Shown here in pieces: positions 34,502-35,565 of a stretch of DNA of 64,000 nucleotides; position 1 is the stretch's first letter, and each line of letters begins with the position of its first letter. Position numbers and translations under genes: made by a program. Location of the stretch: contig FR898651.1 of assembly GCA_000437215.1 (NCBI GenBank), positions 29,762 to 93,761 on the forward strand, written 5' to 3'. The notes under the pieces were generated by a model, which saw only the letters and a program-made list of their open reading frames with translations, ran no database searches and was not told the DNA's origin. This DNA comes from Clostridium sp. CAG:440 (GTDB taxonomy: Bacteria > Bacillota > Clostridia > TANB77 > CAG-508).

Positions 34502-35565
34502 ATTAATCAAAGAAAGTTTTTATAAATTTTTCAAAGAATAAGATGTCATTCATTTCTTCAGGATGCCATTGAACAGCAATAATATTTCCCTTTTCAATTG
34601 CCTCAATTGTTCCATCATCAGATTTTGCAGAAATTATAAATTGATTTGCAACATCTTTTATAGACTGTTTATGGTATGAATTAACATTAATATTTTCTTT
34701 GTATACTGAATTTAAAAAAGTACCATCTTTAACATATATTTTATGTAATTTATCTTTTAAATCGTGATTTTCAATTTTTTGATTTAAACTACCACCGAAG
34801 CAACATCTTTTATAGACTGTTTGTGATATGAATTAACATTAGCATTTTCTTTGTATACTGAATTTAAAAAACTACCATCTTTAATATGTATTTTATGTAA
34901 TTTATTTTTTAAATCGTGATTTTCAATTTTTTGATTTAAACTACCACCGAAATATACATTTATTGACTGAAGCCCCCCGCAAATACCTAAGATTGGCTTG
35001 TTAGCATTAGAAAATAATTTAATTGCCTCTTTATCTAATTTGAATTCGTCTATATCATAATTTTTATTTGGAAAATATACATTTATTGACTGAAGACCTC
35101 CGCAAATTCCTAAGATTGGCTTGTTGGCATTAGAAAATAATTTAATTGCTTCTTTATCTAATTTGAATTCGTCTATATCATAATTTTTATTTGGAACAGG
35201 ATTTTCGTTATAATAATGTGGTGGAATATCAATACAACTTCCTGTTATAATAAGTCCATCGCATATATTACAAACTTTTTCTAAGTTTGTAGTAGAAATA
35301 ATAGGGAACAATAATATACCTAATTCATCAAATATTTTTTTATAATACTCTGTTAAATAATATCTATTATTAAATGGCGCTCTCTCTTTTATATCTTCGA
35401 TTCTTTCAATTATTGCTAATATCATTTACTAGAAATAATAGGGAACAATAATATATCTAATTCATCAAATATTTTTTTAAAATGTTCCGATAAATAATAT
35501 CTATTATTAAATGGTGCTTCATCTTTTATATTTTCAATTCTTTCAATTATTGCTAATATTAAAAA
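34502..35565 (-). pseudogene. Class I glutamine amidotransferase (peptidase C26, gamma-glutamyl hydrolase-like) disrupted by three internal tandem duplications
   Basis: ATG at 35423-35425. Nucleophile motif GICGGLQ present (twice). C-terminal AVQWHPE motif is encoded only in a shifted frame, ending at stop 34502-34504. Duplications: 152-bp 34649-34800/34801-34952 (about 95% identical, not a multiple of 3), 123-bp 34952-35074/35075-35197 (in frame), and about 137-bp 35293-35425/35430-35565 (N-terminal copy). Confidence 0.7.

Follow-up and report, generated by a model that had tools for sequence, protein, structure and literature searches.

The three tandem repeats that interrupt an amidotransferase gene of Clostridium sp. 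CAG:440 are very probably an artefact of metagenome assembly involving two organisms, and not biological duplications. The repeat copies are the A and B alleles of the gene; the chimerism is confined to the region that the two organisms share, the junctions are absent from the other assemblies compared, and the region tiles into nodes of a de Bruijn graph at k = 45. Which assembler was used, at which of its steps both arms would have been emitted, and that recruitment of reads by mapping would have caused the mixture, we infer. In its true form the gene of this lineage has one copy, as seen in L066, a contig of an independent assembly (OJNH01000139.1).

Repeat structure and identity of the amidotransferase gene

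Within the window (the 64-kb stretch of DNA analysed here), three adjacent tandem repeats of 137, 123 and 152 nt, whose copies are 89-96% identical, break a minus-strand amidotransferase gene at positions 34503-35563 (Table 1). All three had been proposed by the sequence-only reading and were recovered with Tandem Repeats Finder essentially where that reading had placed them, the 137-nt repeat covering the 5′ end of the gene. Direct alignment gave 5 mismatches in 123 positions for the 123-nt pair, which is in frame; all five are synonymous, so that the 41-aa segment with the catalytic Cys is repeated exactly, as had been claimed. The copies of the 152-nt repeat differ at 8 of 152 positions and, again as described from the letters, the repeat shifts the frame: the longest ORF (213 aa) stops at 34784, just past it. 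In the 137-nt pair, 13 differences are found across 133 in-frame aligned nt. To the earlier description we add that the 123- and 152-nt repeats adjoin, with 2 nt in common. A search for other tandem duplications (period 40-1500, at least 85% identity) found none in the 64-kb window, and the view that three repeats in 1 kb are unusual therefore holds: they are the sole such repeats in the window, far beyond chance. No N gap separates the copies (the window has 0 N), and removal of one copy of each repeat leaves an uninterrupted reading frame of 215 aa.

The collapsed 215-aa protein scores 143.2 bits against Pfam PF07722 (Peptidase_C26; cut-off 20.5), the match spanning profile positions 21-219 of 219, and 60.8 bits against PF00117 (GATase; cut-off 22.8). 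Together with the GICGGLQ and AVQWHPE motifs, both of which are present and are conserved in P0002-P0012, these matches confirm the assignment to the Peptidase_C26/class I glutamine amidotransferases made in the sequence-only reading. In P0001 the first motif reads GICLGLQ, with the Cys kept. The catalytic roles of the Cys in GICGGLQ and of the WHPE motif we take from established knowledge of the family. The protein resembles the Peptidase C26/PuuD-like gamma-glutamyl-gamma-aminobutyrate hydrolase family in its near-full PF07722 match, its GICGGLQ Cys nucleophile and its WHPE motif, and NCBI gives a name of this kind to one relative, P0091. The broken 213-aa ORF is identical to P0004, deposited for Clostridium sp. 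CAG:440 as 'anthranilate synthase component II' (CDE25935.1), a name that is a generic amidotransferase label; the gene stands alone, with no tryptophan-pathway context around it. P0004 forms a singleton cluster and is found on one NCBI contig (114,512 bp), so that the window belongs to a metagenome-derived bin of the co-abundance-gene-group (CAG) series. The ORF as assembled is chimeric and frameshifted, and an intact ORF of this gene with a start codon was not found in this genome.

Table 1. Features of the amidotransferase region, in window coordinates. Differences are counted against allele A or allele B, from the loci named where these are given.
Feature	Position	Strand	Description
152-nt repeat	34648-34951		2.0 copies, 94% matches (Tandem Repeats Finder)
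123-nt repeat	34950-35196		2.0 copies, 95% matches (Tandem Repeats Finder)
137-nt repeat	35293-35559		1.9 copies, 91% matches (Tandem Repeats Finder)
3′ part of amidotransferase, single-copy	34503-34646	-	Gene positions 504-647 plus TAA stop (34505-34503); AVQWHPE motif; A-type bases at diagnostic sites 34590, 34575 and 34542
Y_B (Y2)	34647-34798	-	152-nt B-type arm of a bubble, gene positions 503 to 352; 2 differences vs B, 9 vs A
Y_A (Y1)	34799-34950	-	152-nt A-type arm of the bubble of Y_B, 150 nt compared; 1 difference vs A, 10 vs B; final 2 nt are the 'link' node with C at gene position 353
X_B (X2)	34951-35071	-	121-nt node (123 nt from variant site 34949 on), B-type arm of the second bubble; holds the catalytic GICGGLQ segment; 0 differences vs L005-L011 (B), 5 vs A
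X_A (X1)	35072-35194	-	123-nt A-type arm of the second bubble; second GICGGLQ copy; first base is variant site 353 (T), last base lies 44 nt past the last internal variant (35150); 0 differences vs L060/L061 (A), 5 vs B
W	35195-35288	-	94-nt shared single-copy node between bubbles; B-type bases at 35237 and 35207
P_A (P2)	35289-35425	-	137 nt; dead-end tip in the graph; last base is the A of the A-type ATG (35425), the annotated ORF start; 0 differences vs L001-L004 and L060/L061 (A), 13 vs B
P_B (P1)	35426-35562	-	137 nt, B-type 5′ end of the backbone gene; 0 differences vs L066, 17 vs A
213-aa chimeric ORF as deposited, CDE25935.1	34784-35425	-	
Copy of 16-bp direct repeat ATATTAGCAATAATTG	35544-35559	-	At the 706-bp deletion junction
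ftsY (SRP54-type GTPase)	35758-36663	+	Divergent neighbour; anchors collinearity with B-type contigs

Alleles A and B in other assemblies

Protein searches found two intact 215-aa alleles of the gene, P0001 (allele A) and P0002 (allele B, in 118 blocks of the collection), whose coding regions differ at 34 of 648 sites (~95% identity). In each repeat pair the amino-acid variants of P0001 lie in one copy and those of P0002 in the other. Nucleotide comparison was made with a set of 39 independent close loci drawn from ENA, Logan, GTDB genomes and JGI metagenomes. Of the six copies, four equal their allele (0 differences) and two depart from it at 1-2 sites, and the differences between copies fall without exception on A/B diagnostic sites (26/26). 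The copies represent two distinct source haplotypes, and since every difference is an A/B site, the private mutations that would mark a genuine tandem duplication are not found between them.

The junctions were likewise not reproduced in independent data from the same lineage. The three junctions, searched as 30-mers with up to 3 mismatches, were found in 0 of the 39 close loci. The backbone of L066 is as in the window: at the upstream junction an NT5C-family gene is missing from both, and both have the additional 1.13 kb downstream. The amidotransferase gene of L066, however, is single-copy, and the interval is shorter by 412 bp, which is 137 + 123 + 152. Comparison with an intact orthologue in relatives, the check put forward with the sequence-only reading, did not bear out the duplications. 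A junction-peptide search of a 15-billion-protein collection returned 15 proteins, and the junction was present in none of the four that were read; this search also missed the known positive, P0004, and therefore says nothing either way.

Three independent biological tandem duplications in one gene, arising by slipped replication or unequal crossing-over and diverging later in place, would account for copies that lie perfectly head to tail, that are imperfect to the degree expected of older duplications, and whose collapse restores the frame; genuine duplications of this kind would also have the layout seen here, with one in-frame and one frameshifting repeat. However, divergence in place cannot rebuild the allele of another lineage base for base, which excludes a history of three duplications that later diverged. 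The 26 differences reproduce alleles that are intact in other assemblies, the five in the 123-nt pair are all synonymous although the gene would be broken, the junctions are missing from all 39 related loci, and the block boundaries follow the k = 45 graph nodes described below. In a genuine intragenic duplication the copies would not be two pre-existing alleles joined at junctions seen in no other assembly, and we regard this explanation as close to impossible. The slipped-replication or recombination hotspot suggested by the sequence-only reading falls with it, the copies being the A and B alleles and their limits being node boundaries. The ratio of synonymous to nonsynonymous differences (10 vs 16 overall) was considered as proof of functional divergence, found mildly suggestive and set aside. 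A diversity-generating retroelement was also dropped as a source of the differences, because these are exactly the allele differences of other genomes.

The two alleles lie in different genomic contexts. For many kb on both sides, the window is collinear with the B-type loci L005-L011 and L072 at 99.3-99.9% identity, and collinearity in this identity range holds for L066 too. A-type loci (L001-L004, L057-L063, L071) have in common with the window only the amidotransferase gene and ~190 bp downstream, and their flanks are 97-99.8% identical to scaffold scf96 of Clostridium sp. CAG:465 (L012), where the A allele lies near secE, nusG and the rplK-rplA-rplJ-rplL cluster. The gene with its ~190 bp downstream (window 34313-35427; L012 9834-10835) is ~92-95% identical between the CAG:440-type and CAG:465-type sequences, and the flanks are unrelated; this arrangement suggests that the shared gene travelled from one genome to another or took part, as a small cassette, in a rearrangement.

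These contexts bear on a variant of the artefact explanation, in which A and B would be paralogues in one genome or alleles of two conspecific strains. Its graph mechanism would be identical, and with 64 kb of the genome visible a second locus could lie elsewhere. However, 13 of 13 A-type loci lie in the CAG:465 context, beside the single-copy core genes rplK, rplA, rplJ, rplL, nusG and secE, and 0 in the context of the window. In addition, CAG:440 and CAG:465 are separate co-abundance bins, and in the B lineage, independent contigs as long as 228 kb have the B allele alone at this locus. We therefore consider paralogues or conspecific strains very unlikely, and take A and B as the alleles of two organisms.

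Several other records are interrupted at or near this gene. The record of L019 (Clostridium sp. CAG:1219 scf18) ends at gene position 351, within 1-2 nt of the node boundary 352/353 of the window, the short metagenome contig L073 ends inside the amidotransferase gene, and L070 begins ~48 nt before its in-gene match. Assemblies seem to break repeatedly at this gene.

Structural variation around the gene

Compared with L005-type contigs, the window and L066 lack 706 bp upstream of the gene (L005 9282-10019; window junction 35544-35600). The missing segment comprises the NT5C-family gene (205 aa) and the ATG of the amidotransferase gene. As it is common to the window and L066, this deletion is probably real, and it is the reason why P_B has no ATG; after collapse, the backbone (B-type) gene lacks an ATG in the window and in L066 alike. 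Judged from the sequence, the deletion therefore probably removes the start codon whether or not the repeats are an artefact, and the backbone amidotransferase could be a genuine pseudogene of this lineage. Just upstream, the poly-T tract is 7 T long in the window, against 8 T in L066. In L005-type contigs the NT5C and amidotransferase genes overlap by 20 nt, and in a protein of another lineage (P0003, 272 aa, ENA) the C-terminal part of NT5C is called in frame with the amidotransferase as one product.

On the other side, a 1.13-kb segment (window 33182-34313) is present in the window and L066 and absent from the L005-type contigs of the same lineage; it contains a 228-aa ORF (33484-34170, minus strand) with no Pfam hit, and is a second strain-level structural variant flanking the amidotransferase gene. 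Farther away, ~3.5 kb (about 26812-30286) beside a tRNA-Thr gene (26736-26811) are absent from L005, and the same tRNA-Thr site in L006-L009 holds a different cargo, an acetyltransferase and an EamA transporter; this tRNA-Thr-adjacent segment looks like a strain-variable island. The window also contains an ordinary tmRNA gene (48156-48507) with the tag peptide ADNRELALAA.

Graph signature and probable origin of the chimeric gene

In a Velvet-style de Bruijn graph, the node of a bubble arm opens at a variant base and extends k-1 bases past the last variant. On the plus strand, the first base of the Y block is diagnostic site 503 (34647/34799), and the block runs on to exactly 44 nt past its last internal variant (34754 to 34798). 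The X block opens with a C/T variant (34949/35072) and likewise runs to exactly 44 nt past its last internal variant (35027 to 35071). The trailing runs of X and Y are both 44 nt, which gives k = 45. For the P block, the first base is diagnostic site 136 (35289/35426). That blocks start at a variant base was dropped as evidence, because the register of a tandem repeat can always be shifted so that it begins with a mismatch; the weight rests on starts at independently known diagnostic sites, on the equal 44-nt trailing runs and on the tiling of the whole region.

For the tiling, two haplotypes were rebuilt from the window together with a link of 2 k-mers, and we asked whether window positions 34200-35800 could be written as whole nodes laid end to end. 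The haplotype sequences are independent of where the cuts are placed, and with the allele of site 353 and the course of the link path taken as assumptions, the region is an exact concatenation of all nine k = 45 nodes, each used once (403, 152, 150, 2, 121, 123, 94, 137 and 375 nt). The same tiling fails at the other values among k = 40-50 and odd k of 21-75, and of 300 control mosaics made from the same haplotypes with random breakpoints, none tiled at any odd k. The block boundaries are thus explained by a data structure of the kind that assemblers use.

The sites that switch together form the groups 26-136, 188 and 218, 275-353, 396-503 and 560-608. These groups are as expected for k = 45, because at least 51 identical bases separate them, with the exception of positions 353 and 396, which are just 42 identical bases apart, so that two bubbles touch at k = 45. 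It is here that the tiling needs the third, 2-k-mer 'link' path, which joins C at 353 to the A-type base at 396. In the two 152-nt copies (34949 and 34797) gene position 353 reads C, and at 35072 it reads T; all 39 reference loci have T and none has C. The C is a sample- or assembly-specific base.

Painting the gene site by site revealed ~10 switches between A and B, of which three are backward jumps that create the 'duplications' and the others occur without duplication. In gene orientation, the path follows B to position 133, jumps backward, and continues as A (-1 to 136) and B (188, 218); it then runs through A (275-329), a backward jump, B (275-329), A (362-479), a further backward jump and B (396-503), and ends with A (560-608), B (679-799) and A (803-806) before the backbone resumes. 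All switches lie inside the ~0.85 kb of homology between the two organisms (gene position -2 to about +840), and elsewhere the window is plain B-lineage sequence. The switches without duplication sit in the longest identical stretches (at least 32 nt).

The mosaic could in principle be real, if a strain of the CAG:440 lineage had taken up the CAG:465-type gene and repeated homologous and illegitimate recombination had then produced three allelic tandem duplications. The gene is ~95% identical in two organisms with unrelated contexts, which suggests past gene transfer, and long identical stretches such as those that hold the duplication-free switches are favoured by recombination too. Such a history, however, needs three end-joining events in 1 kb, each swapping A-type and B-type sequence exactly at the junction, and single-crossover integration of a circularised fragment would be expected to leave donor sequence on both sides of the junction. 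It also leaves the 44-nt ends of both closed blocks and the k = 45 tiling unexplained, and the junctions are confined to this one assembly. We consider a real mosaic extremely improbable; if true, it would mark an unusually active illegitimate-recombination hotspot beside a strain-variable region.

The artefact could have arisen as follows. The CAG:440 bin would have been built by extracting the reads that map onto catalogue genes and re-assembling them. A second organism of the cohort, of the Clostridium sp. CAG:465 type, has, in an unrelated context, a version of this single gene that is ~95% identical, and its reads would presumably have been recruited together with those of the first. The A and B alleles would then form bubbles in the k = 45 graph. 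At some bubbles one arm would have been kept, A or B by turns, which would give the checkerboard chimera. Both arms would have been written in series at two of the bubbles and at a dead-end tip, which would give the 152-, 123- and 137-nt 'tandem duplications'. Foreign reads would be recruited by the ~95% identical gene and at this gene only, so that it would be the sole affected place in 64 kb. The end of P_A exactly at the A of the ATG (35425) would fit recruitment to catalogue sequences delimited by ORFs. According to a secondary description in a review (PMC4782286), the CAG/MGS method uses a gene catalogue made non-redundant at 95% identity, and the reads of each sample that map to the genes of an MGS are extracted and re-assembled; this description makes the mixing of two read sources at this locus plausible.

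Related errors are known. False 'heterotype' duplications, which arise from diverged haplotypes, are a documented assembly error (Ko et al. 2022, PMC9516828), and the concept of false duplication is traced there to Kelley & Salzberg 2010. The present case is alike in that two diverged versions placed side by side mimic a tandem duplication and corrupt the gene model. It differs in that the versions come from two organisms of a metagenome rather than from diploid haplotypes, that the blocks are as short as 123-152 nt, and that their boundaries can be traced to single k = 45 graph nodes; moreover, published false duplications usually flank an assembly gap (PMC9516828), whereas there is none between the copies here. 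With the inter-genome chimeric contigs of short-read metagenomes (PMC4782286) the gene shares a region that was left unresolved and a path that alternates between sources. The usual outcome there is a chimeric join or a collapsed consensus, whereas here three bubbles or tips also emitted both arms serially. Over an explanation by overlapping contigs that a scaffolder had abutted we prefer the graph-node model, which fits to the base. Of the alternative offered by the sequence-only reading, an assembly problem in a repeat, the assembly problem stands; the repeat is a gene shared by two co-occurring organisms, not a repeat within one genome.

Neither a duplication hotspot nor a shattered gene is left to explain, and CDE25935.1 and its gene model are chimeric artefacts. 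A read-free flag for such artefacts can be had from two questions: whether the copies match alleles that are intact elsewhere, and whether there is a single k whose de Bruijn nodes tile the region. Genes that are ~95% identical between co-occurring gut organisms can yield false intragenic 'tandem duplications' in bins whose assembly was guided by a gene catalogue.
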